From Ruminococcus sp. (GTDB taxonomy: Bacteria; Bacillota; Clostridia; Oscillospirales; Acutalibacteraceae), in assembly GCA_045541275.1 (NCBI GenBank), contig JAZQIX010000014.1, positions 32,877 through 96,876 on the forward strand: a stretch of 64,000 bases of DNA. Direction: 5' to 3'. Positions 11,657 to 55,651 of this stretch are shown piece by piece. Under the pieces are notes generated by a model. The model searched no databases and was not told the DNA's origin. It saw nothing but the letters and a program-made list of their open reading frames with translations. The position numbers and the translations under genes were made by a program. Every line of letters begins with the position of its first letter. Position 1 is the first letter of the stretch.

Positions 11657-11715
11657 AATCGCCTTTCTGTCATAATATATAAATGACTTTCATAATATAA
11701 AGCGAGGTGTTATCT

Positions 11716-30071: not shown

Positions 30072-30213
30072 TCTTAATATTAACTTAATAATATGGATTC
30101 GCAAAAAAGCTGGTGTTAAAATATTTAACTGAAATGATATAGTGATGGTAGACACAAAAAAGTGTCTACCATCACTTTTTATGTTAGAATAAAGAAAAGG
30201 AGTTGAAAAAAAG

Positions 30214-30573
30214 ATGGGAAGGCCAAAAGGTGGAACAAATAAGAATCATAGCAAAGAAGAAAAATTAGCATTGGTAAAACGAAATTTAGCAGGAGAACGA
30301 GCATCAGATTTGGAAAGAGAAACAGGAATATACCACGCTCAAATACACAAATGGACACAACAGTATTTAGAGGGTGGTGAAGCTGCACTTGTTAACAAGC
30401 GCAAACCGGGTAACCCGCTTGCAAAATATGCGCGTAAAAAAGAACTCACTCCAACAGAGCAATTAGAATACAAAATTGCACTATTAGAGCGAGAACTTCT
30501 AAAGAAAAACGGAGAAATTGTACGATTAAAAAAATTCATAGAACTGGAAAGGGGCGATGCCAAAAGAAAGTGA
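30214..30573 (+). CDS. IS3-family transposase OrfA (HTH + leucine zipper)
   Basis: 119 aa with an HTH (ERETGIYHAQIHKWTQQY) and a coiled-coil tail. The slippery site A_AAA_AAA lies in LKKF. Confidence 0.85.
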   Translation: MGRPKGGTNKNHSKEEKLALVKRNLAGERASDLERETGIYHAQIHKWTQQYLEGGEAALVNKRKPGNPLAKYARKKELTPTEQLEYKIALLERELLKKNGEIVRLKKFIELERGDAKRK

Positions 30574-31472
30574 TTCAGCAAATATATGCTTGTGTTGAAC
30601 GCGAAAGTGAACACCACTCAGTAAAGGAATTATGCGATGTGTATGAAGTATCCCGTTCAGGATATTACAAATGGTTAAAACGGAAAGGAACTTTAAATCG
30701 TTATGAACAGCAACAGCAAGAACTGGATTACTATGTTGCAGATGTTCATTCTCATTATCCGTCGCAAGGATACAGAAGTATAGCAGATACATTGTTAAAT
30801 GAATATGGTTGGGTAGTATCCGATGTTTCTGTGTTTAAATCTATGAGGCGGTTAGGAATTAGTGGATTTATTAGAAAGCAAAAGAATTCGGAACAAGACG
30901 GTTCTGGAAATGAACACGATAGATTCCCTAATATTCTCAACCGAAATTTTTATTCAGCCAAACCGATGCAAAAGATTGTCACCGATGTTACATACATTAA
31001 AAACAAAGGAAAGTGGTATTATCTTGCATGTTATCTGGATTTGTTTAACAATGAAATTGTGGATTGGGAATTAAGTGATACCTTTGACAATTTTCTTGTA
31101 ATGAAACCTGCCAAAAGAATTCTCGAAAAAGCAAAAAGTACTGCAACCCCTATCCTTTTGCACAGCGATCAGGGCGTACAGTACTCATCAGCAGGTTATT
31201 GCAACCTGCTTAAATCTTACAATACTATTCAAAGCATGTCAAGAGCAGGAAATCCGAGAGACAATGCTGTAATTGAATCTTTCTTTGGTAGATTCAAAGA
31301 TGTTATGTCATCACACTTCCAATATTGGAAGTGTGATGACATACACAAAGTTGTTGCCGACACTATTCATTACTTCAATTACATACTCCTGTTCGTAAAC
31401 TTAAAAGAAAGCCGCCAGTCCAATACAGAATTGAACTGGCAGCTTGATCTTTTGCTTTTTTGTGTCTACTAA
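30570..31472 (+). CDS. IS3-family transposase OrfB (DDE/rve integrase core), probably made as an OrfAB -1 frameshift fusion; 3' end possibly frameshifted
   Basis: rve motifs (VTDVTYI, HSDQGVQYSS, GNPRDNAVIESFF). The -1 frame is open from the A7 run. The conserved IS3 C-terminal tail (HTPVRKLKRKPPVQYRIELAA*) is found in another frame from about 31382. Confidence 0.75.
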   Translation: MIQQIYACVERESEHHSVKELCDVYEVSRSGYYKWLKRKGTLNRYEQQQQELDYYVADVHSHYPSQGYRSIADTLLNEYGWVVSDVSVFKSMRRLGISGFIRKQKNSEQDGSGNEHDRFPNILNRNFYSAKPMQKIVTDVTYIKNKGKWYYLACYLDLFNNEIVDWELSDTFDNFLVMKPAKRILEKAKSTATPILLHSDQGVQYSSAGYCNLLKSYNTIQSMSRAGNPRDNAVIESFFGRFKDVMSSHFQYWKCDDIHKVVADTIHYFNYILLFVNLKESRQSNTELNWQLDLLLFCVY

Positions 31473-31596
31473 CTATTGACTATTTCAGTTAAAATATTTA
31501 ACACCAGCTTTTACAATTTTGTTAGATATCTTTGCTCATATTATTTACACAACAAATTTTACTATATATGTAAAAATAATATAAAAACATATTATT

Positions 31597-33656: not shown

Positions 33657-35354
33657 CTATGTTTTTGTTTGCCTTCGCATTGATTCTACTGCTGCACCAA
33701 TTAGATTGGGTACATTTTCTGATGCCCATGCATCCCAGAACTTAATTGTTGCACTATTAGGCTCAGGATTAGGCTTTTTTATAAGTATTCTACTAGGCAG
33801 CAGACAAGAATCACCCACTACTAAAGCTTCTCCTACATCAAGGATAGGCAACAGATCGCCAAAATTACCAATGCTATCAGGCAAAAGTCTTTTTATAACA
33901 TTTTGATCATCTGAATTGGTTAACCTCATTGCAACATAGTTACTACTTTGACTTAAAACAGTCCTGTCCACCTCAGATGGTCTCTGTGTAATAACAACAA
34001 GACCAACACCATATTTTCTTCCTTCTTTTGCAATTCTTTCGAAGCTCTGCAAACTCATTGATTCCATACCTGCATTAACATTTTGAGGGATATACAAATG
34101 AGCTTCATCGCAGAACAATGCAATTGGATGTATTTTTTCTTTTTCTATCCATTGCTGAACAGAGAATACAATTCGAGCAATAAGTGAAACGACCAGAGGC
34201 AATATGTCAGATGGCACTTCAGAAAAATCAATGATTTTTATTCCACCACCTCCAGATGCCGGTAGCATTAACTTTTCACATAATACACTCATATAGTCAT
34301 ACTTTAGCAAATTACAATCCTGAGAAAACATAAAGTTCAATCTTTTGTCGCTAGTTTTATTTTCTAACCTCTGAATAAATCTTGACAACACCCCATTATA
34401 GTCTCCCTTTTTAAGTTTTCCGCTTGATCCTGTAACCATTTCTGTATTAAACTCGTTAAATTTACTAATAACTGCAGGAATACTATAGGGGACCGGACAA
34501 TCGATTGTGATATTATCTAATATATCATCCATACCATTTTCGGCTAAAAATTCATTTTTCTTTTCCAAAACTGTTTTGCTAAAAATCATTGCCTGATTTG
34601 GAGCGTTATTATCTCCTCTGTCCAGCATCATTGACATCATCTCTTCATATGTCAACAACCAATATGGCAAGAATAAGACCTCATCAAAATAAATATCGCA
34701 TGGTCCCGCAATTCTATAATGCTTGATGTTTTCACCTATAATAGGTACATACTCCCCGTGTATATCAAATACAATTGCATTTGCAGATTTTAACAGAGCA
34801 GCTTGTTCGATAATTGTTGCAACTGTACATGACTTACCGGATCCTGTACTACCTACAACCACAGCATGCTTTTGAAAAAATTTATTCCCATCTAAATATG
34901 CATTTGCATGTTTACTCAATGCATAAGTTCCTATATTAAGTGGCTCTACTCCTTGTTGCGCAGTATTTGACAAGACACCCATAAAGTTTGCTAAATCATC
35001 ATCGTTCATTATATAACATTCTGAACTGATTTCAGGAACAGATTCTAAAGTTCTTTTAAAAACATTTTTGGCTGTACCTTCTTTGTCTAAAAGAGTACCA
35101 ATCAAATTAACCTTCACTATATCTTCTGTTGAAAATTCTTCGTCACTATCTATAAGCTCGTTATATTTTCTAACAATTTTAACGACCATACCTATAAGTG
35201 TTTGACGCTCCTTCGAAGCTTTTATAACAACAAGATTGTTAACTTTCACACTAGATAAAACTACCTCATTCTCAACATTTATTACCACACTAGCAGTATC
35301 AACAGCTTGCACTACACCTATACGTGAATTCTCTTCAAAACTAAATATTGACAT
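33657..35354 (-). CDS. herA: HerA-like (DUF87) ATPase/helicase of a SIR2-HerA defence pair
   Basis: Walker A VVGSTGSGKSCTV, Walker B IALFCDEAHLYIP, VVITQRPSEVD. ATG at 35354 is 6 nt after GGAGG, and the SIR2 stop TAG lies within the RBS. Confidence 0.8.
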   Translation of the reverse strand: MSIFSFEENSRIGVVQAVDTASVVINVENEVVLSSVKVNNLVVIKASKERQTLIGMVVKIVRKYNELIDSDEEFSTEDIVKVNLIGTLLDKEGTAKNVFKRTLESVPEISSECYIMNDDDLANFMGVLSNTAQQGVEPLNIGTYALSKHANAYLDGNKFFQKHAVVVGSTGSGKSCTVATIIEQAALLKSANAIVFDIHGEYVPIIGENIKHYRIAGPCDIYFDEVLFLPYWLLTYEEMMSMMLDRGDNNAPNQAMIFSKTVLEKKNEFLAENGMDDILDNITIDCPVPYSIPAVISKFNEFNTEMVTGSSGKLKKGDYNGVLSRFIQRLENKTSDKRLNFMFSQDCNLLKYDYMSVLCEKLMLPASGGGGIKIIDFSEVPSDILPLVVSLIARIVFSVQQWIEKEKIHPIALFCDEAHLYIPQNVNAGMESMSLQSFERIAKEGRKYGVGLVVITQRPSEVDRTVLSQSSNYVAMRLTNSDDQNVIKRLLPDSIGNFGDLLPILDVGEALVVGDSCLLPSRILIKKPNPEPNSATIKFWDAWASENVPNLIGAAVESMRRQTKT

Positions 35355-35364
35355 AACCAACCTC

Positions 35365-36354
35365 CTAAATAATCTTATTGAACCCTTCTATTGTCCAATA
35401 AACACCTTCTATAACAGTATCTGTCTTGTTAATAATGAATCGTGTTTGATTCTCTCCGCCGCTAATTACAACAGCATGTTTTTTACTATTACTAACTATC
35501 ATATCAAGTGCACTATCCGAAAGTTCTTTTGTGACAACAACAATGGGAACTCCTAACTTTATGCGAGAAATAATTTTACCTTGTATCTGGCTATCATTAA
35601 AGCCATAACCAATACAAAGGTAATTATTAGCTTTATCAATCAAGGTATCAGTGTTATGTAATATATCTCTATTAGTCGTTGTATTTAATATCGCTTCATA
35701 CTTATTTGTTCCTGGTGTAATTATCTCAGGCATAAATCCAATTGGAATATTCATCTGCAATGGTATTGATACACTTTCCTTTGTTTTTTCATCAACAAAA
35801 GAATCTAAGGAACCATGCACCTTCAATAAATTAACTATATTTCTTTCTCTTAACTGAGATATCTTTGATTTTTTGTAATACATTCCTGTATATCTGTTAT
35901 CGACTTGTGCATTACATCTATCACAGCAATATTCAATGTATCTATCGTAGTTTGTTGTAATAATATTAAGATTGTTGCTACTGGTTCTGAGCAACTTTTT
36001 AATCAAATCTGAAAATGGTAAATCATAACCAAACAAAACTTTCTCTCTAAACACCTTTAAATCAGCATCACTAATCAATTGCCATGTTGATCTTTTTATA
36101 TCATTTAACAAACTCTCACTCAAATTAATAGATGTAAGTGCTTTTTCTAAATCTTCACCTTCTCTTAACCTTTTCGAAACCTTAATCCAATCAGCATCTT
36201 CGAAATACTTATCTTCCAAATTATCCAATAAATATTGTGCTAACTCCTTCATTCCCGGAATCCCAACAGGAATAGAAGCACCCGTTCCTACAAGCATCAA
36301 AGGTACATCGGATAGGTATTCCTGAATAATCTTATAAATCTCTTCTTTATTCAT
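35365..36354 (-). CDS. SIR2-like (SIR2_2) NADase-type effector protein
   Basis: LMLVGTGASIPVGIPGM, IITTNYDRYIE and KVHGS are SIR2_2 hallmarks. Start trimmed to the ATG at 36354 (MNKEEIYK). Confidence 0.75.
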   Translation of the reverse strand: MNKEEIYKIIQEYLSDVPLMLVGTGASIPVGIPGMKELAQYLLDNLEDKYFEDADWIKVSKRLREGEDLEKALTSINLSESLLNDIKRSTWQLISDADLKVFREKVLFGYDLPFSDLIKKLLRTSSNNLNIITTNYDRYIEYCCDRCNAQVDNRYTGMYYKKSKISQLRERNIVNLLKVHGSLDSFVDEKTKESVSIPLQMNIPIGFMPEIITPGTNKYEAILNTTTNRDILHNTDTLIDKANNYLCIGYGFNDSQIQGKIISRIKLGVPIVVVTKELSDSALDMIVSNSKKHAVVISGGENQTRFIINKTDTVIEGVYWTIEGFNKII

Positions 36355-36424
36355 ATAAAACAACCTTTCAAAAGCAAGCACAATAATAGTGCTTGCTTTA
36401 TATATTCGTATTATTAACAAACAC

Positions 36425-36450
36425 CTTACAATAACTATTTATTATTGTAA
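36425..36450. repeat. lox/dif-like palindromic site A (CTTACAATAA-CTATTTA-TTATTGTAA)
   Basis: 26/26 identical to the reverse complement of site B. It lies 33 bp upstream of the 36483 start. Confidence 0.8.
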
Positions 36451-36482
36451 AAAACAAAAGAATGCTAATGGAGGATCAAATA

Positions 36483-37865
36483 ATGGAAACATCCTTAAGT
36501 AATTATAATCCTAGTGTTAATATATTAACCAATGCAGAAATCCTCAACACAGATAAATATAAGAAAAAAATTAGCTATCTAACTGTTCAAAGTAGTTTAT
36601 TTGCGGACTCGACATTTAAGAACTGCGATATTGTGGGATGTAAATTATATAATAGTAAATTCAGTAATGTTTCCCTAGACAATGCAGACATTATTTCGCT
36701 TCAAATATCAAATTGTTTATTTATAAATGTGAGTTTTGATGGAACATGTATAGAAGACATAGATTTTAGAAACTGTGTCTTTGATAGTTGTAGTTTTAAA
36801 AATTTCTCTATGAAAAATTGCTGTTTTTCAGGATGTGTGTTTTATAAGTTTAAACCTTCTTGCTGTTTGTGTGAATTAAATAACTATGTAGAGTGTACAT
36901 TCACGGACAGTACTTTTTCAAGTTCATTTCACTATCAAATTTTTAGTGATTGTACATTTAATAACACAAGTGTTGATTTAGAATTATTGGGATATAATTA
37001 TGGCTTGCTATCCAATAGTCAGATTATTATAGAAAACGGCAACATAAATGATTCTACGAACAGAATTGAGTATTTATATAACAATTATTTAGAACAAAAC
37101 TTATACGCTAATGCATTCATATTAAAAATTAATTTTGAATATGGTGAAAATCCATCTGTGTTATTATTATGGACTGATTTTTTGGAAATTATATTGAAAA
37201 ACGACATAATAATTAAATCCAATGAAATAGTTTTTATTAAAAACCTAATTTCTCTTTTCTCAAGAAAAAAACAGATTGCTCCCTTATTATTGTTTGTTTT
37301 GAATAACAAACTTATAAATACGCTTAATAAGTTTAATGTTGAAAATTCTAAAACTAGAGATGATATAATTCTGCTTGTAAACAATATTTATTTCGAATTC
37401 AAGAGCATTATCCAGGAGTTTTCTACACTAAAAGATAATTACTATTTTGAGAATAAGAGACTATTAATTGAAATAAAATACGTAGAAAAGCCTGAAAAAG
37501 ATTTGAGTCAAATATTAAATCAATTTGGCCTGGGTCACTGTAAACAAATAAAAACTGAGGCTGGTTCTTTTTATGAGTGGATTTCCTGTCCAGATAACAT
37601 GATAAAATGTTTGGAAGTTTTTTTGATGTTGTTGGGAATAGCCGCACCTATTGTTTATGATTCAATTAAAACTAAGAAAAAAGAAAAAGCAAAAAAGCCG
37701 ACAAATTTCTTGGATTTGTCAGAAAATACATCTATAAATGTAACTATCAATGTTACAATTAATAATGGATGTCAAATTTTAAATAATTGTAACTTTGTAG
37801 AAAACAACTTTTACGGCTATAACAATAAAAATGTTCAAAAAGTTAAGATATCTGTCGAGAAATAA
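36483..37865 (+). CDS. pentapeptide-repeat protein with C-terminal TM helix
   Basis: A run of A(D/N)LxX-type pentapeptides (FKNCDIVGCKLYNSKFSNVSLDNADIISLQISNCLFINVSFDGTCIEDIDFRNCVFDSCSFKNFSMKNCCFSGCVF) and a TM segment FLMLLGIAAPIVY followed by a Lys-rich stretch. ATG at 36483 is 7 nt after GGAGGA. Confidence 0.7.
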   Translation: METSLSNYNPSVNILTNAEILNTDKYKKKISYLTVQSSLFADSTFKNCDIVGCKLYNSKFSNVSLDNADIISLQISNCLFINVSFDGTCIEDIDFRNCVFDSCSFKNFSMKNCCFSGCVFYKFKPSCCLCELNNYVECTFTDSTFSSSFHYQIFSDCTFNNTSVDLELLGYNYGLLSNSQIIIENGNINDSTNRIEYLYNNYLEQNLYANAFILKINFEYGENPSVLLLWTDFLEIILKNDIIIKSNEIVFIKNLISLFSRKKQIAPLLLFVLNNKLINTLNKFNVENSKTRDDIILLVNNIYFEFKSIIQEFSTLKDNYYFENKRLLIEIKYVEKPEKDLSQILNQFGLGHCKQIKTEAGSFYEWISCPDNMIKCLEVFLMLLGIAAPIVYDSIKTKKKEKAKKPTNFLDLSENTSINVTINVTINNGCQILNNCNFVENNFYGYNNKNVQKVKISVEK

Positions 37866-38964
37866 ACTCAAGTAAAGCAGTCAACGCATTTCCAATAATA
37901 TGAGGATCTAACGATAAATTAATTCTAAACGAACAATTAGGATTCCCATTAAGAAAACCAGGAATGATTGAAACTAAAGTCTCCTTTATCATTTCTTTAA
38001 TAAAGTTTATTGAATCCAAGGGGATATCGGGAATGTAAATTGTTGCATAAGATCCTAAAGAATGAATTGTGTCTATTTTGGCAAATGGGTATTTCTTTAG
38101 CACTTCGATTATTATGGATTTGCTTTGTTCAAACCATATTTTGGCCCTTCGTTTACAAAGATCATAATTTGGGCTCAAAAAATGCTCTATAGCATTTATA
38201 CTACTTCCAGGTAAAGCTCCACCTATTACATCAATCCATTGTTCCAAAAAATCATCATTAGACTTGTCACAAATGATGGCTGAAAACTTAAATCCATTAA
38301 AAAACAAAGATTTGTGAGGACTATATATGCCAAATAAGTATTTATTTGGTTGCAAATCTCTAATAGTTTCAAAACCATTTATATTCAAGCTCTCATCAAT
38401 AATTACTAATCTTTTGTTGCTTGTTAATGTGTTGATACTTTGAATTGTCGATTTCCTCAACATACAGTTAGTAGAATATATTGGAGATGTAACCCATATA
38501 GCATCTGTCTCATTTGTTTTTAAGATTTCAGAAGGAAACATACAATTGGGTTCATATGAGATTTTTACAATCTCAAACTCGGCTAATTTACATGTTTCTT
38601 CTACAGAAAAATACGATGGTTGAAGAATGAATAGGCGACGATATTTATTCAGTTTTAGATAGTTAATGATATTTACTATTGCCAACGAACTATTAGGCAA
38701 AAGCATACACATCTGTGTCTTAGTCCGTTTTCCAGTAAGTTTTTCTATGATTGCTTCCCTTATCTCAATAGGAATATCATATGTATATACATAATCAAAA
38801 AGTCTTGATATAGATTGTGGTGTTAGTTCTTTTAACATCATATCCGTATATTCGTTTGATGGATTCCAGTAAGACAAGTTTGTAACAGGTTTGTTAGTAT
38901 GCAAAGATATATCTTTCTCAATTTCAAATATATTGTCCATAAAAAATATATCGTCAATAAACAT
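37843..38964 (-). CDS. PLP-dependent aminotransferase-fold protein (divergent)
   Basis: The order of class I/II aminotransferase landmarks is preserved: WVTSPIYSTN (NPxNPTG position), VIIDESLN (DEAY position), YSPHKSLFFNGFKFS (SxSK Lys loop) and CSFRINLS (C-terminal Arg). Each landmark is degenerate. Confidence 0.45.
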   Translation of the reverse strand: MFIDDIFFMDNIFEIEKDISLHTNKPVTNLSYWNPSNEYTDMMLKELTPQSISRLFDYVYTYDIPIEIREAIIEKLTGKRTKTQMCMLLPNSSLAIVNIINYLKLNKYRRLFILQPSYFSVEETCKLAEFEIVKISYEPNCMFPSEILKTNETDAIWVTSPIYSTNCMLRKSTIQSINTLTSNKRLVIIDESLNINGFETIRDLQPNKYLFGIYSPHKSLFFNGFKFSAIICDKSNDDFLEQWIDVIGGALPGSSINAIEHFLSPNYDLCKRRAKIWFEQSKSIIIEVLKKYPFAKIDTIHSLGSYATIYIPDIPLDSINFIKEMIKETLVSIIPGFLNGNPNCSFRINLSLDPHIIGNALTALLEFISRQIS

Positions 38965-38992
38965 TATACATTAAACCTTTCAATAATAATCC

Positions 38993-39018
38993 TTACAATA
39001 ATAAATAGTTATTGTAAG
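38993..39018. repeat. lox/dif-like palindromic site B (TTACAATAA-TAAATAG-TTATTGTAAG)
   Basis: Reverse complement of site A, 26/26. It lies 27-28 bp upstream of the 38964 start on the minus strand. Confidence 0.8.
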
Positions 39019-39237
39019 TTGTTTTCATAAATTATCAACTTTTGGTATAAAAAATAATGTAAAAAAGCACCACTCATAATAATTCCTAACCACAACTACC
39101 AACAATATTCAACAAATAAAAAATTTTCAACAAAAACTCGAAATTCAATTTTATGGATTACGAGTCTTTTCTTTTTTTAACAATGATAAACACGCATCTG
39201 AACTCATTAACCTATCCTCTCTCCTTTTACCATTACG

Positions 39238-39269
39238 TATAAACTTACAATAACAATAAATTATTGTAT
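39238..39269. repeat. lox/dif-like palindromic site C (CTTACAATAA-CAATAAA-TTATTGTATG core)
   Basis: 32/32 identical to the reverse complement of site D. It lies 66 bp upstream of the 39336 start. Confidence 0.8.
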
Positions 39270-39335
39270 GATAATAAGGGATCAAAAATATCATATACGA
39301 GCAGTTGTAAAAAGGGAAAGGAACAATGATTCACA

Positions 39336-40433
39336 ATGAATAAGATGGACATATATGAACGAGCAGTTCAAAGTATTATAGACTATAGTTCTGGAGATGT
39401 AACATCATGCTTGATGAAAGAATATGCGATTAAAGGAATGTATAATCTGCTATCTTGCTTGGATAACCTTGGTATGTGTGGGAAAGAGACAAAGTTAATT
39501 GCATTGCCCGATTTTACTTTTTCAAGAAACGATAAAAGATTTAACTCTTTTTTTCCTTACGGCTCTATAATACATATCGATACATCTGGTGAAATGTTTA
39601 TACCGCTGGGATTTAGACCCAATTGTTGTGGTATCACGATGCTTGAATTAACGAATACAGATGCAAACATTGATAAAATTAAAACAAATCTATACACTCT
39701 TGCAAAACTTGATTTTGGTATTGCAAGCGACGATTTGAATAGAGGCAATCATTTCATTGGTATATATGAAAATCAATCTACATCTCAAATGTATGCAATT
39801 ATTCATGGGTCATTTGACTTTGTTAAATCGGGACATAACGACATCCCCGGATTGTATATTGATAAAACAAATTATTGGGACGATAAATTATGTATATATA
39901 GTGAAAACGATGTCTACTTTCCTTATCTCGTTAGTGACAATGCGGTTCACTATTACAAGGCATACTTACAACATGAGCAGACAACAAAAGAACTACGTAG
40001 TAAAATTGCTTACCATCTGTTCCCGAATAGCAAAATTATTTTTAATGAAACGCATGAGGGGTTTTACCAACATAACACCATTACACTTGGAGCATATATA
40101 AAAAACACTTCTTTTACTGCACCCATTATGCTTTCAGCAGAATCAGATTTATCCATAATTAATGTAAATCGTCCGTTAACGGATATTTCATCAAACATAT
40201 ACGCCTGTCCACATGGAGGAGGTTATTCCTTAAAATATATAGTTAATGGACTGTATAATATTGACACTCATATTTATAAGTTGCAGTTTGAAAACAAGGC
40301 TGTGATGGAGACAACTGATATTCGCAAACTAATATATGATTATAGAACTAATACTGATCTTATTTGGTGTAAACATCATGCCTTCGGTAATATTACAAAT
40401 AAATACTCTACTGTATACAATCTTAAACTATAA
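39336..40433 (+). CDS. divergent RtcB-like (RNA ligase fold) protein
   Basis: RtcB motifs occur in the right order: ALPDFTFS (MPDxH position, His lost), RPNCCGIT (DxGCG), NRGNHFIGIY (GNHFIE), IIHGSFDF (HSGSRG), YQHNT (HHNY), ACPHGGGYS (HGAGR nucleophile His). Confidence 0.5.
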   Translation: MNKMDIYERAVQSIIDYSSGDVTSCLMKEYAIKGMYNLLSCLDNLGMCGKETKLIALPDFTFSRNDKRFNSFFPYGSIIHIDTSGEMFIPLGFRPNCCGITMLELTNTDANIDKIKTNLYTLAKLDFGIASDDLNRGNHFIGIYENQSTSQMYAIIHGSFDFVKSGHNDIPGLYIDKTNYWDDKLCIYSENDVYFPYLVSDNAVHYYKAYLQHEQTTKELRSKIAYHLFPNSKIIFNETHEGFYQHNTITLGAYIKNTSFTAPIMLSAESDLSIINVNRPLTDISSNIYACPHGGGYSLKYIVNGLYNIDTHIYKLQFENKAVMETTDIRKLIYDYRTNTDLIWCKHHAFGNITNKYSTVYNLKL

Positions 40434-43058
40434 CATCATCAGAAATGTAGATAACGCCTGTTTGTGATTGATTAAATCATCAATCATATCTACATTTATA
40501 TTGTTTGTAATAGTTTCATAAAGATAGGATTTATATAATTCCGTCATTTCTGCTATGTGATTCTCGGTAGATGATAATGCTTTAACCGCAGCTTTTTTTA
40601 ATTCAAAAAGGTTATATTCTTCGCACAGATCTATGATAGTTTTTAAACGATGTGCAAGATGCAATTTGCTTGCTTGTTTTATACAGAGTTTCAGAATACA
40701 TAATGCTTGTGTTGTTTGGTGAGCAGCCAAAAGTGCATAGGCATAGGTAATGCCTGTAGCAACTTCTTCTTTCTTTAAATTAAGTTGTTGTGCTTTTTTA
40801 TATGCTTCTTCGCCCCAGTATACAGTTTGAGGAATATCATGCATTTTATAATAGATTTGCGAATGCAATTTCATAGAGAATGTAAGGCCTCGTTGAGTGT
40901 TTAGAGATTTCTTTATTTCTATGCTTTTATCATTATACGCAATTGCAACATCATAATCTTCATTTCCCAACGCACATTTACTCAATCGATAATATGCAAA
41001 TGCTCGACGTTTGATGCTGACAAAATATCTTGTGTCCATTAATTGAGTAAGTGTTTGCATAGCGTTTTTGAACAATCCTGCTTTTTCCTCAATTATACAA
41101 ATTCTATGGATAGCTTTAGCCGAAAGATTTGATAAATTATTGCGTATAGCTAAATTGAATATATAATAATAAATTTCAACTGCTATTTTCATTTCACCAA
41201 CGACATAATAAGTTCGTCCAATTATAAAGAGAATTTGTAAATATAAATCTATAGGATAATGCTGATATTCAAAAATATTATCATAAAAATCCTTGAGTAA
41301 ATTTGTAAAATCACATTGAAAGTATCTCAATCTCAAATTCAAGTAATTCCACATATGGTAATCTTCGTTTGATTTGTCAATAATATCTTTTGTTATATTA
41401 ATGTAATTACTCAATAAATCATATTCAGATTTTCTTTCTAATAATATCATCTTTTTGATTAGAATAGATAACGAGTTTCTTTTGTTGAGTTTTTCTCGTT
41501 CTTGAAGAGATTCCAATAACATCACATCGTAGCCTCTGCTCAAAAGAAAATCAAATTTTTCTTTCAAAAGAGCATCATATTCATTACTTCTATTAGTTTT
41601 ACAACACAAATTCATAAGATCTATATATAAAAGTGAGTTTTCACTAGCACACAATTCTATTATATCGAATGCTTCTTCGGGAATTAAATGTAATAAATCT
41701 ACGATGTACTTCTTGTACATATCGTGCAGGACTATTACTTCACCTTCTAATTTTGTCAATCTTTTTTGAGTTAATTTTTCGAGAGCTGATCTATAGCTAT
41801 TTCTTTCTAATAGTTTTATCGGCAATGGAACTCTCGAGAATGCTAAAGAATAGAGCAGAGCTTTTTCTTTGTTTTCCATTAAAGAAATTAACGAATCAAA
41901 ATATGATGATAATCCTTCACAATTAACACACTCAAAGTTTGTTGGCAATATTTCTGCTAGACCCGGTAACCCATCGGATCTTTTTACGATTTCCTCCATT
42001 TCCTCTTCATTAAGAGCTTCATTATAAGATAATGCAATTTCTCTGATATGTTGCGGCGATAGGGGTTCGACATCCACAAATACAATTTTATTATTAACTT
42101 TCAAATCATGAATGTTAAAAATATTAAACCATCCAAGTAAATGCATCTTACTTCGTTCTATCTCGAGTAATTGAATTAATAATTCAATATACTGATTACT
42201 GTTACATTTGTGGATATCATCAATAAAAAACACGCAATCATAATTTGATAGCATAGTTTTAATTATATTAATAAGCGACGCAGTTAGATAATTACCATGA
42301 CTATTTAAATATTCATTTAATTCGTTTCTTTTTAATACACAAGCAAAAAATGTACCAAGTGATTCCAGAAAATTCTTTATTTGACACTCGCCATCTTGCA
42401 TTAATATTCTATGCCAAAATACAAAATACCCTTTGCTGTAATAGTGATGTGCAATGTTTTTTGCGAGTTGTGTTTTGCCAACACAAGATGGACCAACAAG
42501 ATAAAAACAATGTGTGTCAGATTCTAACAATAATTTCTTCTCTATTTTTCTATTAACCAAATTATGATTTGATGGTAAAATGCGAGATGTATATTCTAAT
42601 TCATATGAATGTTCTACGATGTTTAACAAGGTGTAAATGTGGTTTTTTAGCTCGAAAAACAATTGCTCTGTGTCTGTGTGATTAAGGCAAGTTATATACC
42701 TTTCTAACGAGGTTTCCTCTTCCCAAGCTACATTTAGTTTATATTGTTTTGAAATTGATAAAATGTAATCTTTAGTTGCAGGAGTAAGATAGGTATTCGT
42801 CCAAATGTAAAATAAATCAGGTTTTGTGGAAACAGCCCAATTTAACGATTCACATATATTTTTTTGTTTTATTGAAGATTTATGGTTTTTACACTCTACA
42901 ATAACCGTCTTAGATACACCGTTATATTCATATATTGCCACAATATCTTTGCCACGATCCGAACCACCTCTATAGAATTCTATGCTCTTTGGATGGGTTC
43001 TTTCTAAAATTGAAAAAACCAAATTTTCAAATTCATTCCCTTTTTGAGTTGTATTCAT
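40428..43058 (-). CDS. Mrr-like PD-(D/E)xK nuclease + STAND/AAA P-loop NTPase + TPR-like repeats (Avs-like defence protein)
   Basis: N-terminus GNEFENLVFSIL...GGSDRGKDIVA...VIVECKNHK (Mrr_cat pattern). Walker A YLVGPSCVGKTQLA, Walker B CVFFIDDIHK. The C-terminal about 400 aa are helical-repeat/TPR-like. Confidence 0.7.
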   Translation of the reverse strand: MNTTQKGNEFENLVFSILERTHPKSIEFYRGGSDRGKDIVAIYEYNGVSKTVIVECKNHKSSIKQKNICESLNWAVSTKPDLFYIWTNTYLTPATKDYILSISKQYKLNVAWEEETSLERYITCLNHTDTEQLFFELKNHIYTLLNIVEHSYELEYTSRILPSNHNLVNRKIEKKLLLESDTHCFYLVGPSCVGKTQLAKNIAHHYYSKGYFVFWHRILMQDGECQIKNFLESLGTFFACVLKRNELNEYLNSHGNYLTASLINIIKTMLSNYDCVFFIDDIHKCNSNQYIELLIQLLEIERSKMHLLGWFNIFNIHDLKVNNKIVFVDVEPLSPQHIREIALSYNEALNEEEMEEIVKRSDGLPGLAEILPTNFECVNCEGLSSYFDSLISLMENKEKALLYSLAFSRVPLPIKLLERNSYRSALEKLTQKRLTKLEGEVIVLHDMYKKYIVDLLHLIPEEAFDIIELCASENSLLYIDLMNLCCKTNRSNEYDALLKEKFDFLLSRGYDVMLLESLQEREKLNKRNSLSILIKKMILLERKSEYDLLSNYINITKDIIDKSNEDYHMWNYLNLRLRYFQCDFTNLLKDFYDNIFEYQHYPIDLYLQILFIIGRTYYVVGEMKIAVEIYYYIFNLAIRNNLSNLSAKAIHRICIIEEKAGLFKNAMQTLTQLMDTRYFVSIKRRAFAYYRLSKCALGNEDYDVAIAYNDKSIEIKKSLNTQRGLTFSMKLHSQIYYKMHDIPQTVYWGEEAYKKAQQLNLKKEEVATGITYAYALLAAHQTTQALCILKLCIKQASKLHLAHRLKTIIDLCEEYNLFELKKAAVKALSSTENHIAEMTELYKSYLYETITNNINVDMIDDLINHKQALSTFLMML

Positions 43059-43143
43059 AACAAACCTCCTAGGTGTATCATATCTTTTTAAAAAACCTCA
43101 AGTAACATGTATCGGTTATTTGATTATTGCATCCATTATTACA

Positions 43144-43175
43144 ATACAATAATTTATTGTTATTGTAAGTTTATA
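43144..43175. repeat. lox/dif-like palindromic site D
   Basis: Reverse complement of site C, 32/32. It lies 86 bp upstream of the 43058 start (minus) and about 60 bp upstream of the recombinase start (plus). Confidence 0.8.
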
Positions 43176-43236
43176 TTTATACTTACACCTCGAAATTTGA
43201 TAAAATAAGAAAAATAATATTTCAATGAGGTGTATT

Positions 43237-44148
43237 ATGAAAAATTTAAACAATCTAATTACTGAGTTTATTAATATAGCTCAGTCAACTAAAAATCTGT
43301 CTACTAAGACCACTACTGCCTACAAGTCTGATTTACACGATTTTGCAAACTATGTAGAAAGTAAATCAATAGGCGAAGACACAATATTAAATTACATACA
43401 AATACTATCTCAAAAAAGGAAGTTGAAAGATAGCACTATAAACAGAAAGCTCATCGTACTTAAAATGTTTTTTCAATTCTTGCAATCTCATAATTACATC
43501 AAGCAAAACTACTTTACTGCACACAATTTCAAGTTCAAACGAGAACGCAAACTTCCAAAAACGATATCCATAAAAGAGTCAAAAAAGCTTTTATCTTACT
43601 CTACAAATCTAACTATCACAGCAAAAAGTGACTTTGAGAAATGGAAATCTATTCGCAACCTAGCTTTGATTGATATACTAATAAGCACCGGAATTAGAAT
43701 TGCAGAAGCTTCCAATATAATGATGGAGGATATTATCACCTCTGAACACACCATACTAATTCATGGTAAGGGACGAAAGCAAAGGCTAATATACATTTCC
43801 TGTTCTCAAACATGGCAAAACTTAAATTTATGGATAAAATACAGAAACAAGCGAGTAACCACATCAAATAATCTGTTTGTCAACCGATACGGAGAACAAA
43901 TCAGTATTCACGGAATCGAATACATTTACAACTCACTTAAAACGGGAGCAAAAATCAATTTAAACTCAACACCACATTATTTAAGACATACCTTTGCAAC
44001 CAATCTTCTTGCAAATGGTGCTGATCTTCGTTCTGTTCAAGAAATATTAGGTCATAGTAGCGTATCTACAACTGAAATATATACTGAGGTTACTACAAAA
44101 CGAAAGATGCAAGTACTAAATAGATACAACTATAGAAATAAATTATAA
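43237..44148 (+). CDS. XerC/XerD-like tyrosine recombinase (complete catalytic set)
   Basis: [12 protein letters not shown] (R), [10 protein letters not shown] (K), [12 protein letters not shown] (H-x-x-R), [16 protein letters not shown] (H, Y). The start is either 43225 or 43237. Confidence 0.85.
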
Positions 44149-44162
44149 AACATACGGAAGCA

Positions 44163-45092
44163 TTAATCTAATTCTTCTTTATTTTTTATAACAACTACCA
44201 ACTCAGAATACTCTTCTTTAAACTCTTCAAAGCAAGCATTTACATATTCCTTGTTGGGCACAAAATCATTGCCACTGCTTATTACATTAAACAGTTCGAC
44301 ACCACAGGATGTTAAGAAATATGAATCAATTGATATAGTAGGAGCATTATCATTCTGCGCAATAACGAACACCACTGTATCTTTGTTATGCACAACCAGT
44401 GTCTTATCCGCAGAAAAATCAGTTGCAAGCGAATTATCAATAGATAACAATCCTGCTTCAATCAAAGGAATAATGTGAGTTGAATAAACATACCCTTTTT
44501 CGTCAATTATTTTTTTGCTCCTATGGTTCGAATCGTGAAGCTGATAAAAACCATTTGAATTGATAAAATAGCAATCACCGCTTACTAAAACCAATTGACA
44601 CAACTCGTTAAAAATCTCAGCTTCTTTTTGCGAAATATTTCTGATCACCTCTAATGTCCTCAAAGAAACATTGCCGGGATTTATTATTTCTCCGCATAAT
44701 ACCCTGCTCCACAACTTTTGCAACTCTTCATTACTAATACTTCCTACTGCATCAAAGAAGCGCATAATCCAATCAAAATCAACAGGGTTATCTGACACAG
44801 CTTCAACATTTTCCAAATACTCACTTGCAAAGCCTGCTGTTTTCACAAAATTTTTAAGTTTTGCCACCTCATACAAGGTAAAGGTTTGCTGTTCAAGTAA
44901 TTCTTCTTGCTGTCTTTGCCTGTAAATTTCAACATCAACTTCCGCCTTGCCTTTTTTCAGTGTTATGGTCGGCAGATACAATGTTTTAATCACATCTCCT
45001 ACAACATCTATAAGCTTTGCTAACACAGGAGATGCAGCAACAATCGGCAATCCGGTATTAATTAATTCTATTATCTGATTTTGATCAATCAT
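44163..45092 (-). CDS. DUF2806-like protein
   Basis: DFDWIMRFFDAVGSISNEELQKLWSRVLCGEIINPGNVSLRTLEVIRNISQKEAEIFNEL resembles the DUF2806 core recalled from memory. Start trimmed to the ATG at 45092 (GGAGGA RBS). Confidence 0.45.
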   Translation of the reverse strand: MIDQNQIIELINTGLPIVAASPVLAKLIDVVGDVIKTLYLPTITLKKGKAEVDVEIYRQRQQEELLEQQTFTLYEVAKLKNFVKTAGFASEYLENVEAVSDNPVDFDWIMRFFDAVGSISNEELQKLWSRVLCGEIINPGNVSLRTLEVIRNISQKEAEIFNELCQLVLVSGDCYFINSNGFYQLHDSNHRSKKIIDEKGYVYSTHIIPLIEAGLLSIDNSLATDFSADKTLVVHNKDTVVFVIAQNDNAPTISIDSYFLTSCGVELFNVISSGNDFVPNKEYVNACFEEFKEEYSELVVVIKNKEELD

Positions 45093-45167
45093 ATAATCCT
45101 CCAACAAGAACAATCCATACAAATTATATACATAATTTTATCATTCATTGTAGAACTTTTCACCAAT

Positions 45168-45202
45168 TTGGCATAGATGGTAGAAAAAATGGCGTAGTTG
45201 GT
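45168..45202 (-). promoter_or_regulatory. candidate LytTR-type binding site: 14-bp direct repeat with 21-bp phasing
   Basis: Minus strand reads TACCAACTACGCCA-N7-TACCATCTATGCCA (12/14 identical, start-to-start 21 bp), then 16 nt and TACAAT. The 45-nt block resembles 55606-55649 upstream of agrB. Confidence 0.4.
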
Positions 45203-45229
45203 AAATTCTGTCGATTGCTAATAACACAC

Positions 45230-45260
45230 AAAGACTCCATCGGATAGCGATGGAGTCTTT
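45230..45260. terminator. hairpin terminator downstream of the dGTPase-like gene
   Basis: AAAGACTCCATCG-GATA-GCGATGGAGTCTTT. Confidence 0.5.
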
Positions 45261-45359
45261 GTAATATTATTAATCTTTAAGCACACATATTGATAAACGC
45301 AAATTAACTATATTTTATCTGTTAATACTATAAGAGTCCACTTTTGTCCCTTAGCAAAA

Positions 45360-46586
45360 TCAGAAATACTCATGATACTGCAGTTTACCAATCAACTCAT
45401 CATTGATATGCAGATGCTTGCAAATATCAATAAAGTAGTCATCAGACATACTCGCGATAAAATCAGTAACAATTTCATTGGGATCTGCAATGATTGCTCT
45501 TGTAGCCTTATCACGATAGCAATCCCCTAATATGGATTTGTTAAGGTGATGAGCAAACACAGGAGAAGTATAATCCCTGTTTTTAACATCTTCTACCAAT
45601 CGTTCATAAAGTCCATGCATTAATGGTCTGATTATTTCATAATAAGGTACATTCAATTCTGTATCGCCATATATCTTATAGTTTTCTCTGATCAAATCCT
45701 CAAAATCATCAAAAACTTCTTTATCCATATTCAATGTAGGGGAATCAATACTATTCTTAATAATGTTAATAACAATATTGGAAATAATATCACTATTGCT
45801 TGTACCAATTAATCGCTTTTCCTTAAACTCCTCGGGAATCATTCCTGCTCTAAGCATATCCTGTCTATCCTTGCCTGCATAAGCAATTCTGTCGCTTATT
45901 CTTACAACACAGCCTTCAAGGGTATTAGGACGAAGCTTTTTGTGATAATTATTATCCAGATAGCAGTTCTCCAGAATTTCATCAAACTCCTCAAATGTGC
46001 TCAAGCTTGACGGTGAATACTCCTTATATCCTTTTTCACCGTTGTGCGATAAGATTCCGCTAAGTGTCTGCAACGAGAGGTTAGAGTCCAGAATATATCG
46101 AAACAATCTGGCACTATGTACATTATGATTAAAGTATCTTACTGGGTTGCCTGATTCTTCACAACCTTTCTGATAACATTCACTCAGAAACTCCTCTCCT
46201 TTGTGACCGAAAGGAGTGTGCCCCATATCGTGTCCAAGAGCAATTGCTTCGATGAGATCAAGATTGAGCTTCAACGCACGGCCGATTGTTCTGGCAATCT
46301 TTGATACAAACTGAACGTGCAAAGCTCTTCTGGTAATATCATCGTTCTTATAAAACGAAAACACCTGAGTCTTATCAGCATATCGATTGTATAGTGGATT
46401 ATGAATAATACAATCAATATCATAAGAATACTGAGGACGTATAATTCCATGTCTGGGACCTCTGGCCTTTCGTATTGTAGCTTCATCGTTTCTAGATGCA
46501 TAAACAGATAAATTATCGTCACACATCAGGTTAACAGATTCCAAATACTTCTTCTCACTCTCGCTAAAAGAAAAATAATCACTCAT
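45360..46586 (-). CDS. dGTPase-like dNTP triphosphohydrolase (HD domain)
   Basis: ALGHDMGHTPFGHKGEEF HD signature and Dgt-family length and layout (408 aa). Confidence 0.8.
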   Translation of the reverse strand: MSDYFSFSESEKKYLESVNLMCDDNLSVYASRNDEATIRKARGPRHGIIRPQYSYDIDCIIHNPLYNRYADKTQVFSFYKNDDITRRALHVQFVSKIARTIGRALKLNLDLIEAIALGHDMGHTPFGHKGEEFLSECYQKGCEESGNPVRYFNHNVHSARLFRYILDSNLSLQTLSGILSHNGEKGYKEYSPSSLSTFEEFDEILENCYLDNNYHKKLRPNTLEGCVVRISDRIAYAGKDRQDMLRAGMIPEEFKEKRLIGTSNSDIISNIVINIIKNSIDSPTLNMDKEVFDDFEDLIRENYKIYGDTELNVPYYEIIRPLMHGLYERLVEDVKNRDYTSPVFAHHLNKSILGDCYRDKATRAIIADPNEIVTDFIASMSDDYFIDICKHLHINDELIGKLQYHEYF

Positions 46587-47214
46587 TTCGCTTTTCCTTC
46601 TTTCTATTTGGATTTTTTGAAAATTGAATTAAGTTTCTGTGCTTTGTTCTTCTGTGAATATATAGAATATCAGTTAATATAATACAATAATAATCTAAAT
46701 CCACTAGTATTATAATATCACTTTATTCGACAAATAATAGACATTTGGCACTGTTGGTCGATATTTGGCTTTAATTTGTTGCTTTTATCAACAGCACCAC
46801 AGAAACCATGTAATAAAACATAAAGAGATATGGTTAACCACAAAGCTACAATCGAGTTGCTTTTTATTAGTTTTACAATCCTATAGAATCACAACATTAC
46901 CACGGAAAGTTAAGTTATAGTAACAATACGAAGGAATTGCTGTAGTTGATATAAAATACGCTAAGCATGCAGGTCTACCATATGCATCATAACTAAAATC
47001 AAATTTTGTAATCCTCTTATATTCAAAAAACATAAAACCCAACTTGTCTCAACCTTTTGTTTTACCATTCATTTATGACTAGGTAAAAACTCCTTGCCTA
47101 ATTTGGCAAAAACGATACAAAAAAGGTTTGATTCATTAGATTCGCATACAATTCATATTTTCATTCATTCCTTTGTATTACAACATAAAACAATAAAAAT
47201 CCACTGGCTTTGCC

Positions 47215-47450
47215 GTTGGTATTTCAGACGTACCTGAACGGTTTTGTTACAAGCAGCGCCTCAAGGCACATTTATATCCGACACTTGCATTTCCACGCTC
47301 ATCTTAACCATAACGCCCTTGCCTCCCTCTGACGAGGGAGGTGGATTTTGCGAAGCTAAAGACGGAGAGAGATTCATATTTTACTACCCCTCAGTCTTTG
47401 CCTTCGGCAAATCCAGCTACCCTGACAAGGGGAGCCACGAGATGGAATCC
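47215..47450. repeat. GC-rich structured intergenic repeat, copy 2
   Basis: A GC-rich patch in an AT-rich gap. Contains hairpins CCTCCCTC-TGACGA-GGGAGG and TTTGCC-TTC-GGCAAA. Shares TTCGGCAAATCC and flanking context with 1120-1300. The track ORFs over it look spurious. Confidence 0.4.
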
Positions 47451-47567
47451 AAAACTTCGTTGTTTCACTTATTTTTCAAAATTCGTTTGTATTCAACCAT
47501 TAATCTCATATTATCTCTGTTTATCGCTAATTTTTTTGGAACCCCGATACAATCGAGGGTGTTTGAC

Positions 47568-47607
47568 AAAAAATGCTGTGTCACTATTCTGTGACACAGC
47601 ATTTTTG
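47568..47607. terminator. bidirectional terminator downstream of the immunity gene
   Basis: AAAAAATGCTGTGTCAC-TATTCT-GTGACACAGCATTTTT (perfect 12-bp stem flanked by an A-run and a T-run). Confidence 0.65.
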
Positions 47608-47656
47608 AGGGATATATTCACCTATAAAATTAATATCTTTAGGAAAACAAAAAACA

Positions 47657-48622
47657 TCATAGCAAAGATAAAACATGTGTACTGAAGTGACACGGGTCTT
47701 TCCAAACACCATAAGACATATATCTCCCACTTCTTTCGAGACTTATAAACTCTGGCATTCCTTCAAGAATTTTTTTTGAAATTATAAATTTATTATAATA
47801 ATCAATTATCATCACATAAAAATCCAAACTTTCAATATCTTCTACACAACATATTAAACAACCCTTTACTTGATCCACTAATACTACCGTTGTAACTCTT
47901 TCTGTGCTTTTCAACAAAATCTTAACATCCAAAATACTCTCATATTTAAAAAGAGAATCAATGGAATGTATAATTAAGGATTGCTTCACCATAGAAATGT
48001 GCTGATTATTCTTGCTATCTAAAATCAAATCAAAATCTTCAACATAATTATTCGATGGTGCAATTTCATAACGCAAGTCAAACTTTCCTAAATCTTCCTT
48101 CCAGTCATACAAAGCAAAATACTCTGGTTGATAAAATTTATCCATTGACTTAATTCTTTTTTTGCATATCAGAATCGTATCTTTAAAACCATCTTTAATT
48201 CCCATATTATAAGCTCTATAAAAGGATTCTATTTGATATTTATTGTTTATCAAATCAATAACAAGAACTTTTGTCAATTCATTTTTTCGAATAAAAACTT
48301 GACTGCTAACAAGAAATATATAATTACCACTTCTTGAAAACTGAATACTATTAACTTCACGTATACCTTGAGTGCTATATTGAGTTAAGGTTTCATTTTC
48401 GATATCATATATCCATAATGTTCTCTTGTTATCTAATCCAGCTATTTTTTTACCATCCGAAGAGAATTCTAAAAGGTAAGATGATTTAAAATTAGGAACA
48501 ATAACCCCTTCATTGATATGGACAGAGTCTGATAAAACCAACTCACACTTCCGCGTCAAAAAAGCTACCTTTTGAGTTTTAGGGGAAAACAAAATTCTTC
48601 TTACATTATTATACAAACACAT
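47657..48622 (-). CDS. putative RHS-toxin immunity protein (beta-propeller-like repeats)
   Basis: Starts 15 nt after the RHS stop, with an AAGGTGA RBS. Repeated FSSDGKKIA / FSRSGNYIF-type strands. The immunity role is inferred from position only. Confidence 0.5.
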   Translation of the reverse strand: MCLYNNVRRILFSPKTQKVAFLTRKCELVLSDSVHINEGVIVPNFKSSYLLEFSSDGKKIAGLDNKRTLWIYDIENETLTQYSTQGIREVNSIQFSRSGNYIFLVSSQVFIRKNELTKVLVIDLINNKYQIESFYRAYNMGIKDGFKDTILICKKRIKSMDKFYQPEYFALYDWKEDLGKFDLRYEIAPSNNYVEDFDLILDSKNNQHISMVKQSLIIHSIDSLFKYESILDVKILLKSTERVTTVVLVDQVKGCLICCVEDIESLDFYVMIIDYYNKFIISKKILEGMPEFISLERSGRYMSYGVWKDPCHFSTHVLSLL

Positions 48623-48637
48623 ACAATCACCTTAGAA

Positions 48638-54640: not shown

Positions 54641-54820
54641 TACAATTCTCCTTTCGACATACAAAATAAAAAGCGAGACATAACTATGCTCAGCACAGTT
54701 GCCCGCTTCTCTTTGGACAACTGCTGTCGTCCATAAATAGAAATTATGCTTTTTTGGGGGTGCTCCTGCCTTGGCGAGAAAATCGTAGAGAAATATACCA
54801 AGGCAGGATTATTAACAATC

Positions 54821-54961: not shown

Positions 54962-54963
54962 AA

Positions 54964-55545: not shown

Positions 55546-55609
55546 ATCATCATACCCTTGTTTATCTTTGTCTTTAATATAGCAGATTTAAATATTATTT
55601 TGTTCAAAT

Positions 55610-55644: not shown

Positions 55645-55651
55645 AATTAAT

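Follow-up and report, generated by a model that had tools for sequence, protein, structure and literature searches.

A putative invertible cassette pairing an RtcB-like protein with an Avs-like STAND nuclease in a Ruminococcus defence island

The 64,000-nucleotide stretch analysed here (the window, from contig JAZQIX010000014.1 of Ruminococcus sp., GenBank assembly GCA_045541275.1) contains two convergent open reading frames, one encoding a 365-residue RtcB-like protein and the other an 876-residue protein in which an Mrr-type PD-(D/E)xK nuclease is joined to a STAND nucleoside triphosphatase (NTPase) and a solenoid resembling tetratricopeptide repeats (TPR). A preliminary description of this DNA had placed the two genes tail-to-tail, and this was confirmed in the window, where their 3' ends overlap by 6 bp (coordinates of all features are in Table 1). 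The pair lies between two inverted recombinase sites, C and D, beside a gene for a tyrosine recombinase, and we consider it an evenly balanced proposition that the 3.9-kb segment between these sites is an invertible cassette within a defence island, carrying two co-evolving genes. We put at the same even level what seems to us its likeliest function, a recombinase-driven switch between a STAND effector of abortive infection and an RtcB-like module for nucleotidyl transfer, in which each flip would exchange the transcriptional inputs of the two.

Sites C and D form a 45-nt inverted repeat, 93% complementary, and share the motif TACAATAA-N7-TTATTGTA, which occurs exactly four times in the window against an expectation of 0.00. 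The copies in C (39246-39268) and D (43145-43167) bracket the RtcB-like/STAND pair, and the remaining two, in sites A and B, bracket a second convergent pair encoding a pentapeptide-repeat protein and an aminotransferase-like protein. Within C and D identical half-sites are separated by asymmetric 7-nt spacers, CAATAAA and TTTATTG, which are mutually reverse-complementary, a geometry giving inversion; the A/B spacers are likewise paired and differ from those of C/D. Such a layout is what would be expected if one tyrosine recombinase, the XerC/D-like protein encoded nearby, served two segments that invert independently. The recombinase, encoded outside the invertible segment, matches Pfam Phage_integrase (E 4e-35) and, below the equivalog cut-off, NCBIfam XerC/XerD-like models, and its catalytic motifs are present (Arg158, Lys182, His251xxArg254, His277 and Tyr286).

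Related loci (L numbers below) were gathered by homologue lookups, which supplied the locus of Maridesulfovibrio salexigens, and from species-representative genomes (7 loci) and metagenomes (31 loci), the genome loci including Claveliimonas, Ruminococcus, Lachnospiraceae, a Bacilli metagenome-assembled genome and Winogradskyella. In all 17 related loci in which both flanks are available an inverted repeat of 17-199 nt lies just upstream of both start codons, in most with the core GGATAA-N7-TTATCC, and a homologous recombinase adjoins most related loci, on either side and in either orientation. Cassette inversion occurs in these relatives. The L005 and L006/L007 assemblies are 99.9% identical with the cassette inverted exactly at the repeat, and the same clean inversion separates L033 from L030/L031/L042, again at 99.9% identity, in a second clade; both orientations are thus seen in relatives rather than in the window's own strain. 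Together with the four motif copies, this upholds the suggestion of the preliminary description that C and D handle the two genes as one unit. Another cassette, L057 (3938 bp), is 96.8% identical to window positions 39241-43169 but has the spacers CTATAAA/TTTATAG in place of CAATAAA/TTTATTG, a compensatory change that alters the same position in both partner sites. We had considered the repeat-ended L057, and other contigs of 3.8-4.6 kb, as proof of mixed orientations, and rejected this, as de Bruijn assemblers break at inverted repeats of about k-mer length regardless; such cassette-length contigs therefore show repeat conservation only.

The pairing of the two genes is near-obligate across phyla. 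A STAND homologue lies convergent with, and immediately downstream of, the RtcB-like gene in ~36 of 37 related loci from several phyla, L034 being the single exception among loci with enough sequence for this to be judged, so that the association looked for between the two families proves to be recurrent. The percent identities of the two proteins to their window copies co-vary (r = 0.96, n = 22), and a direct search with the STAND protein found only 21 clusters, on contigs of similar sizes, indicating a family as small as the RtcB-like clade.

The RtcB homology of the 365-residue protein is visible only through a broader family profile and a structure model. The sequence has no Pfam match even at E 10, fails the gathering score of PF01139 (RtcB), and has no match in NCBIfam, PADLOC or, by phmmer, the PDB sequences; a 28-sequence profile searched against the PDB also had none. 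Its 55 close homologues, each of ~365 residues, are without exception unannotated (0/55), and their alignment contains invariant ALPDFT, RPNCCG, RGNHF, HGS, THEG, PHGGGY and YR motifs. A profile search of 1.84 billion representative proteins returned 346 RtcB-like clusters at 50% identity, 275 of them with E <= 1e-10. When 37 sequences of this wider family were aligned (~20% mean identity), hhalign matched them to E. coli RtcB at 91.6% and to a three-sequence alignment of the Pho, Tth and Eco enzymes at 95.3% (E 2e-8), end to end over 340 columns, and weak, sub-threshold PF01139 matches were evident in four of the 37 (best E 0.007). The AlphaFold2 (AF2) model of the window protein is well defined (predicted local distance difference test score, pLDDT, 91.3; predicted template-modelling score, pTM, 0.90). 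In the PDB its top seven Foldseek matches are all RtcB (probability 1.0, E 3e-7 to 2e-5, query template-modelling score ~0.5), the next match being at E 0.15, and among the viral models of BFVD the top three are phage RtcB, the best a 370-residue protein (E 7.5e-11, template-modelling score 0.59). RtcB is the only significant structural match in either set, which bears out the ancestry first proposed from motifs and places the protein in this fold rather than an unrelated one. As modelled, it is a compact, very divergent RtcB-type fold. It shares the fold and the order of catalytic motifs with the RtcB family (PF01139; P. horikoshii, E. coli and human RTCB) but is only 11-15% identical to the RtcB structural matches and, at 365 residues, shorter than the cellular enzymes (408-505). 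Its genomic partners also differ, a STAND nuclease and a recombinase in place of the RtcA, RtcR, archease or PrfH that accompany canonical RtcB.

Profile alignment of the family to P. horikoshii RtcB was used to map individual residues. Asp59, Cys98, Asn138-His139, His157, His240, His293, Tyr336-Arg337 and Lys364 correspond to Asp65, Cys98, Asn202-His203, His234, His329, His404 (the nucleophile, in the PHGGG motif), a Tyr-Lys pair and Lys480, respectively. All are invariant or nearly so in the family alignments, and Asp59, Cys98, His139, His157, His240 and His293 are invariant across the 37 sequences. In RtcB the M1 metal is held by His234, His329 and Cys98, and M2 by Cys98, Asp95 and His203 (PMC9745838). 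Equivalents of all three M1 ligands are present and invariant (Cys98, His157 and His240); the M2 set is incomplete, with His139 and Cys98 in place and Asp95 aligned with Pro95, for which the neighbouring Asn96 or Cys97 might substitute. Of the two guanine-specific contacts of RtcB, Glu206 (to N1/N2) aligns with Gly142, and Lys480 with the near-invariant Lys364. Among other positions, Asn330 aligns with Glu241 (Glu or Gln in the family), Arg408 with Tyr297, and His67 of the RtcB PDxH motif with an invariant Arg68. These alignments revise part of the preliminary description. The ordered landmarks it listed are real and family-invariant for LPDF (57-60), NCCG (96-99), GNHF (137-140), HGS (157-159) and PHGGG (292-296), but its QHN (245-247) is a non-conserved look-alike, the true counterpart of His329-Asn330 being THEG (239-242). 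Nor has a first metal-binding histidine been lost, as it supposed: His203, His234 and His329 all have invariant equivalents, the ligand that is missing is Asp95, and the structural descriptions of RtcB consulted give His67 no metal-binding role. The pattern of conservation speaks for a catalytic mechanism with a His293-nucleotide intermediate, and the protein is probably an enzymatically active RtcB-type enzyme, with a nucleotide or substrate specificity that is probably altered, since the equivalents of Asp95 and Glu206 are replaced.

The 876-residue protein has the Avs-like build ascribed to it when the DNA was first read. Pfam Mrr_cat matches residues 6-100 (E 7e-8), STAND-type P-loop families (ATPase_2, NB-ARC and nSTAND3) match residues ~170-310, and in the AF2 model (pLDDT 89.4) an alpha/beta nuclease is followed by a P-loop NTPase, which has helical and winged-helix modules, and from residue ~460 by a long all-helical alpha-solenoid. 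Across 16-19 homologues the PD-(D/E)xK signature (Glu11, Asp38, Glu55-Cys-Lys57) is invariant, as are Walker A (189-196; Gly189...Gly194-Lys-Thr196) and Walker B (Asp280-Asp281). The best Foldseek match is an archaeal STAND-TPR protein, 6mfv (E 1e-15), itself uncharacterised; Avs4 (8dgf, E 9e-10) and Avs3 (8dgc, E 1e-9) rank second and third, followed by plant NLRs, MalT, Dark and TPR proteins. Avs4 is a nuclease-STAND-TPR protein that binds the phage portal. Like Avs4 and Avs3, the window protein combines an N-terminal nuclease effector, a central STAND NTPase and a C-terminal TPR-like sensor in one polypeptide, but it is much shorter than the matched Avs chains (1534-2004 residues) and it has an obligatory convergent RtcB-like partner in an invertible-cassette setting. 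As no PADLOC Avs model matches it at E <= 0.01, it is Avs-like in build and outside the described Avs families; its sole PADLOC match, to the candidate PDC-M58A, is limited to the Mrr domain.

The geometry of the flanks suggests what inversion would do. From the inner edge of the repeat to the ATG the distances on the two sides are -11/-10 nt in L001, 4/10 in L015, 19/18 in L038, 18/30 in L048 and 28/21 in L002. These are often too short for a promoter, so transcription would have to enter from the two different flanks, and flipping would swap the transcriptional inputs of both genes. The recombinase genes of L001 and L015 stop 13-35 nt short of the repeat and point into the cassette, co-directional with its proximal gene, which is therefore probably co-transcribed with the recombinase gene. 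There is no terminator between the convergent genes, whose 3' ends overlap. Each of the five loci listed (the window, L033, L048, L026 and L006) has, immediately beyond the repeat on the RtcB-like side, a terminator-like hairpin that would block read-in, and in the three for which the recombinase position is known (the window, L033 and L048) this is the side away from the recombinase. The window hairpin occupies the 225-bp stretch that separates the cassettes and resembles an intrinsic terminator acting in both directions, which would insulate them from each other; its fold z-score is only -1.2. A strong outward-facing terminator lies just past the distal repeat of L002, and in L033 an extended -10 element on the recombinase side faces the cassette. 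The terminator-free overlap of the genes, the hairpins and the L002 and L033 elements favour a mainly either/or output, the expression site being on the recombinase side. We hold with fair confidence that inversion swaps transcriptional inputs, and with moderate confidence that just one of the two genes is on at any time; in the window's present orientation the expressed gene would be that for the STAND protein. Among the roles for the RtcB-like gene offered in the preliminary description, that of an alternative module expressed in the other orientation agrees best with the findings.

In the Maridesulfovibrio locus L001 the repeat itself (11663-11699 and 7988-8011) contains an ATG. On one side this is the start codon of the RtcB-like protein (MNDI...); on the STAND side it begins a leader of 8 codons, the stop of which overlaps the start of the STAND gene (ATGA), suggesting translational coupling. 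Our initial reading, in which the repeat would fuse the same four N-terminal codons to both proteins, was therefore half right.

In the switch as we propose it, transcription would enter from the flanks, most probably from one expression site on the recombinase side facing one insulated or silent site opposite, and each flip would change which gene faces which input, so that the main product in any one cell would be the Mrr-STAND-TPR protein or else the RtcB-like enzyme. In the first state the TPR sensor would bind a phage cue, the NTPase would drive oligomerisation and the Mrr nuclease would degrade DNA, resulting in abortive infection. In the second, the RtcB-like enzyme would form a metal-dependent, covalent His293-nucleoside monophosphate intermediate, thereby activate a phosphate monoester for joining to a hydroxyl, and act as a nucleic-acid end-sealing or tolerance module or as a second, nucleotide-modifying defence arm.

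Several observations weigh against this scheme. A sigma-70 promoter scan gave 48 matches compared to 48.6 in shuffled sequence, and individual promoter calls are set aside for this reason. The window repeat arms themselves resemble a -35/-10 pair (CTTACA-17-TATGAT) and the STAND gene has a TG-AATAAT element inside the cassette, so both genes could be transcribed in either orientation, and the repeats of L013 and L036 (127-199 nt) could each hold a full promoter. A TTGAC-N16-TATAAT-like element lies on the L001 flank away from the recombinase, and both flanks of the aminotransferase cassettes read inward; a version of the scheme with one silent site is thus perhaps too strict. Cooperation of both gene products in the same cell would likewise be expected to lead to tight co-evolution, and we infer a defence function from context and Avs-like architecture only.

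The promoter-like elements of the window, the long repeats of L013 and L036 and the promoter-like sequences on both L001 flanks would also fit a co-expressed two-component defence, in which the STAND protein senses infection and the RtcB-like enzyme works with it in the same cell, as an effector joining or capping nucleic-acid ends or as a repair enzyme by which the response becomes reversible, while inversion only tunes the dosage ratio or is near-neutral. With the near-obligate pairing and correlated divergence also on its side, we regard this as a serious possibility, well short of even. Partner genes of one system are, however, rarely convergent with overlapping 3' ends and no terminator between them, an arrangement that favours transcriptional interference, and the conservation across phyla of a dedicated recombinase and of the repeats, like the occurrence of both orientations, argues for orientation being important. 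Established enzymology provides a further objection. RtcB joins a 3'-phosphate to a 5'-hydroxyl, whereas metal-dependent PD-(D/E)xK nucleases normally leave a 5'-phosphate and a 3'-hydroxyl, and because of this mismatch it is unlikely that the RtcB-like protein mends damage inflicted by its own STAND partner.

Accessory genes in the related loci bear on the chemistry of the RtcB-like arm. A histidine phosphatase (CobC/phosphoserine-phosphatase-like) is encoded inside the cassette in at least 14 loci, and in the clade of ~38% identity its gene lies between the RtcB-like and STAND genes; L013 additionally has a SerA-like D-2-hydroxyacid dehydrogenase gene upstream, and in L029 an S-adenosylmethionine (SAM) methyltransferase replaces the phosphatase. 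In the unpaired locus L034 (5536-8398) the RtcB-like gene lies between genes for a DUF4062-P-loop kinase and a HAD hydrolase, with serine recombinases nearby. In L055 (6001-8232, P0140) an APH-type kinase is fused to the RtcB-like domain. The same operon encodes HAD hydrolases, an SDR, an aminotransferase, an ATP-grasp-like protein and two enzymes of the radical-SAM type, and it looks like a small-molecule or nucleoside biosynthetic cluster. In the window, the aminotransferase-like gene is divergent from the RtcB-like gene. These companions, together with loss of the guanine-specific Glu206 equivalent, raise the alternative that the RtcB-like arm tailors a small molecule or nucleotide, its product being a modified nucleotide or an aminonucleoside-type compound that acts as an antiviral or a signal. 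We judge this decidedly unlikely: kinases, phosphatases and methyltransferases classically accompany RNA end-healing and sealing as well, for example in Pnkp/Hen1, no product can be predicted, and the window cassette itself has no accessory enzyme. We also looked for a link between the window aminotransferase-like protein and that of L055, and comparison showed no specific similarity. This alternative concerns biochemistry and is compatible with either model of expression, the switch or co-expression. The likeness to Pnkp/Hen1 and to T4 Pnk/Rnl, which also act with a phosphatase, P-loop kinase or SAM methyltransferase, extends to the relatives only in part, as those ligases belong to another superfamily, RtcB chemistry needs no end healing, the dehydrogenase has no counterpart there and the window cassette lacks any such gene.

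The cassette lies in a ~35-kb segment of low GC content (~30% compared to ~44% in the flanks) that begins after a tRNA-Pro gene and contains integrases, an IS3 element, a SIR2-HerA system, a DUF2806/Abi_alpha protein, a dGTPase and an RHS toxin (Table 1). The YhaM and AgrB/AgrC-like genes of the window point to a Firmicutes host. Conflict and regulatory genes populate the window downstream of the cassette (44163-57662), and GmrSD, AbiGi and dGTPase are found near related loci. The likely SIR2 start codon (~36354) is only ~70 bp from site A, and the orientation of the pentapeptide/aminotransferase cassette might consequently affect the SIR2 promoter region. An Rfam scan of 36000-44500 found no match.

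Table 1. Positions of the features discussed, in window coordinates.
Feature	Position	Strand	Remarks
RtcB-like protein	39336..40433	+	365 aa; compact, divergent RtcB fold (modelled); Cys, three His and nucleophile His kept
Mrr (PD-(D/E)xK) nuclease-STAND NTPase-TPR-like solenoid	40428..43058	-	876 aa
XerC/XerD-like tyrosine recombinase	43225..44148	+	307 aa; outside invertible segment
Pentapeptide-repeat protein	36462..37865	+	467 aa; one arm of putative second invertible cassette
Class I/II aminotransferase-like protein	37843..38964	-	373 aa; convergent arm of second cassette
Site C, left inverted-repeat arm	39238..39282		core TTACAATAA-CAATAAA-TTATTGTA at 39245-39268
Site D, right inverted-repeat arm	43131..43175		core TACAATAA-TTTATTG-TTATTGTAA
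Site A	36419..36450		half-sites as C/D; spacer CTATTTA
Site B	38993..39024		inverted partner of A; spacer TAAATAG
Hairpin with A-run and T-run	39136..39179		candidate terminator
tRNA-Pro	22520-22596		low-GC segment begins after it
Integrase-like genes	25716-27209 and 27999-29096		island left end
YhaM-like HD exoribonuclease	29118-30071		
IS3 transposase	30570-31472		bounded by 58-nt inverted repeats 30105-30162 and 31455-31512
SIR2-HerA defence system	33657-36420		PADLOC E 3e-100 and 3e-228
DUF2806/Abi_alpha-like protein	44163-45122		
dGTPase	45360-46586		
RHS-repeat protein	48638-54664		2008 aa
AgrB	54964-55545		
AgrC-like histidine kinase	55652-56977		

The RtcB-like family is not confined to defence. 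Distant members of 24-27% identity and ~390-405 residues (L016-L019; P0055, P0075) are encoded by the last gene but one of chemosensory operons, which run MCP, CheW, CheR, CheA, response-regulator cyclase, CheB, RtcB-like protein and a 466-residue protein without a Pfam match. Searches by tblastn gave no match in plasmids and one weak match (21% identity) in phages. The cassette might have no immune role at all, being a phase-variable module with some other task, for instance addiction or a selfish function in mobile elements, or the regulation of another cellular process, and its position in a defence island being incidental; the chemosensory relatives, the relaxase adjoining L001 and the want of any match to a validated defence family, the one PADLOC match being to the Mrr domain of the candidate PDC-M58A, would fit such a view. 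We consider it highly improbable, as defence genes recur around independent loci, the Mrr-STAND-TPR protein matches Avs4 and Avs3 structurally, and the catalytic motifs of both proteins are invariant.

The architecture appears to have a second representative in the A/B pair. The aminotransferase-like protein has more than 130 homologue clusters and so forms a larger family than the RtcB-like/STAND cassette, and in L051-L054 its gene is again convergent with a pentapeptide-repeat gene, flanked by inverted repeats and adjacent to a XerC/D-like recombinase gene. The flanks of L051 match those of L052 exactly, while the cassette between them is cleanly inverted. L054 has the A/B half-site core of the window, with one outer-arm base different, and the same spacer; the recombinases of L054 and the window share 56% identity. 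The recombinase of L051 shares 55% identity with its counterpart in the RtcB-like/STAND locus L013, and its sites are of the GGATAA type. These matches indicate that two recombinase/site lineages each serve both types of cargo, and the two-gene cargo, judged from these sequences, moves as a unit. Being more abundant, the aminotransferase/pentapeptide cassettes offer a test of how general the architecture is.

These data establish an unannotated family of RtcB-derived proteins, of ~350 clusters at 50% identity and with none of the 37 members scanned reaching the Pfam RtcB threshold, of which one clade is tied to an Avs-like STAND nuclease. The proposed switch, if true, would mean that programmed inversion can toggle two different, co-evolved proteins as well as swap variants of a single one, and it suggests that defence-island recombinases, often dismissed as mobile-element remnants, can regulate immunity. 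The cassette yields directly testable predictions on orientation, catalytic residues and nucleotidylation. Going further, there could be a new class of immune switch in which XerC/D-like recombinases flip convergent cassettes between mutually exclusive, co-evolved programmes, here an Avs-like suicide nuclease and an RtcB-derived enzyme that would either make a modified (for example, amino-) nucleotide with dehydrogenase, aminotransferase, phosphatase and methyltransferase partners or reseal nucleic acids, with the aminotransferase/pentapeptide cassettes as second member. In this full form we think the idea rather unlikely; were it true, the RtcB fold would gain a non-canonical chemistry.

An RtcB fold, an Avs-like STAND nuclease and a tyrosine-recombinase inversion switch are each of a known kind, and it is their combination that is apparently undescribed: in the literature on RtcB with STAND, Mrr or defence, and on invertible convergent cassettes, the arrangement was not found, though earlier mention of the clade in the RNA-repair literature is possible. 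Known site-specific inversion systems in which convergent genes take turns at a fixed external expression site include the phage Mu G segment with Gin, the Moraxella pilin segment with Piv, the R64 shufflon with Rci and the Mycoplasma pulmonis vsa locus with HvsR. Such systems swap variants of one protein, be it a tail fibre, a pilin, a lipoprotein or a specificity subunit. Type I restriction-modification hsdS invertons are a further example (PMC7672463). As in known invertons, the recombinase described here is encoded outside the segment, two inward-facing genes have inverted sites at their 5' ends, each orientation is found in nature, and the L001 repeat contains the start codon, as in expression-site fusions. 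The cassette is distinct from them in two respects: its repeats lie upstream of the coding regions, not inside them, and its arms hold two unrelated, co-evolving proteins, an immune sensor-nuclease and an RtcB-like enzyme.

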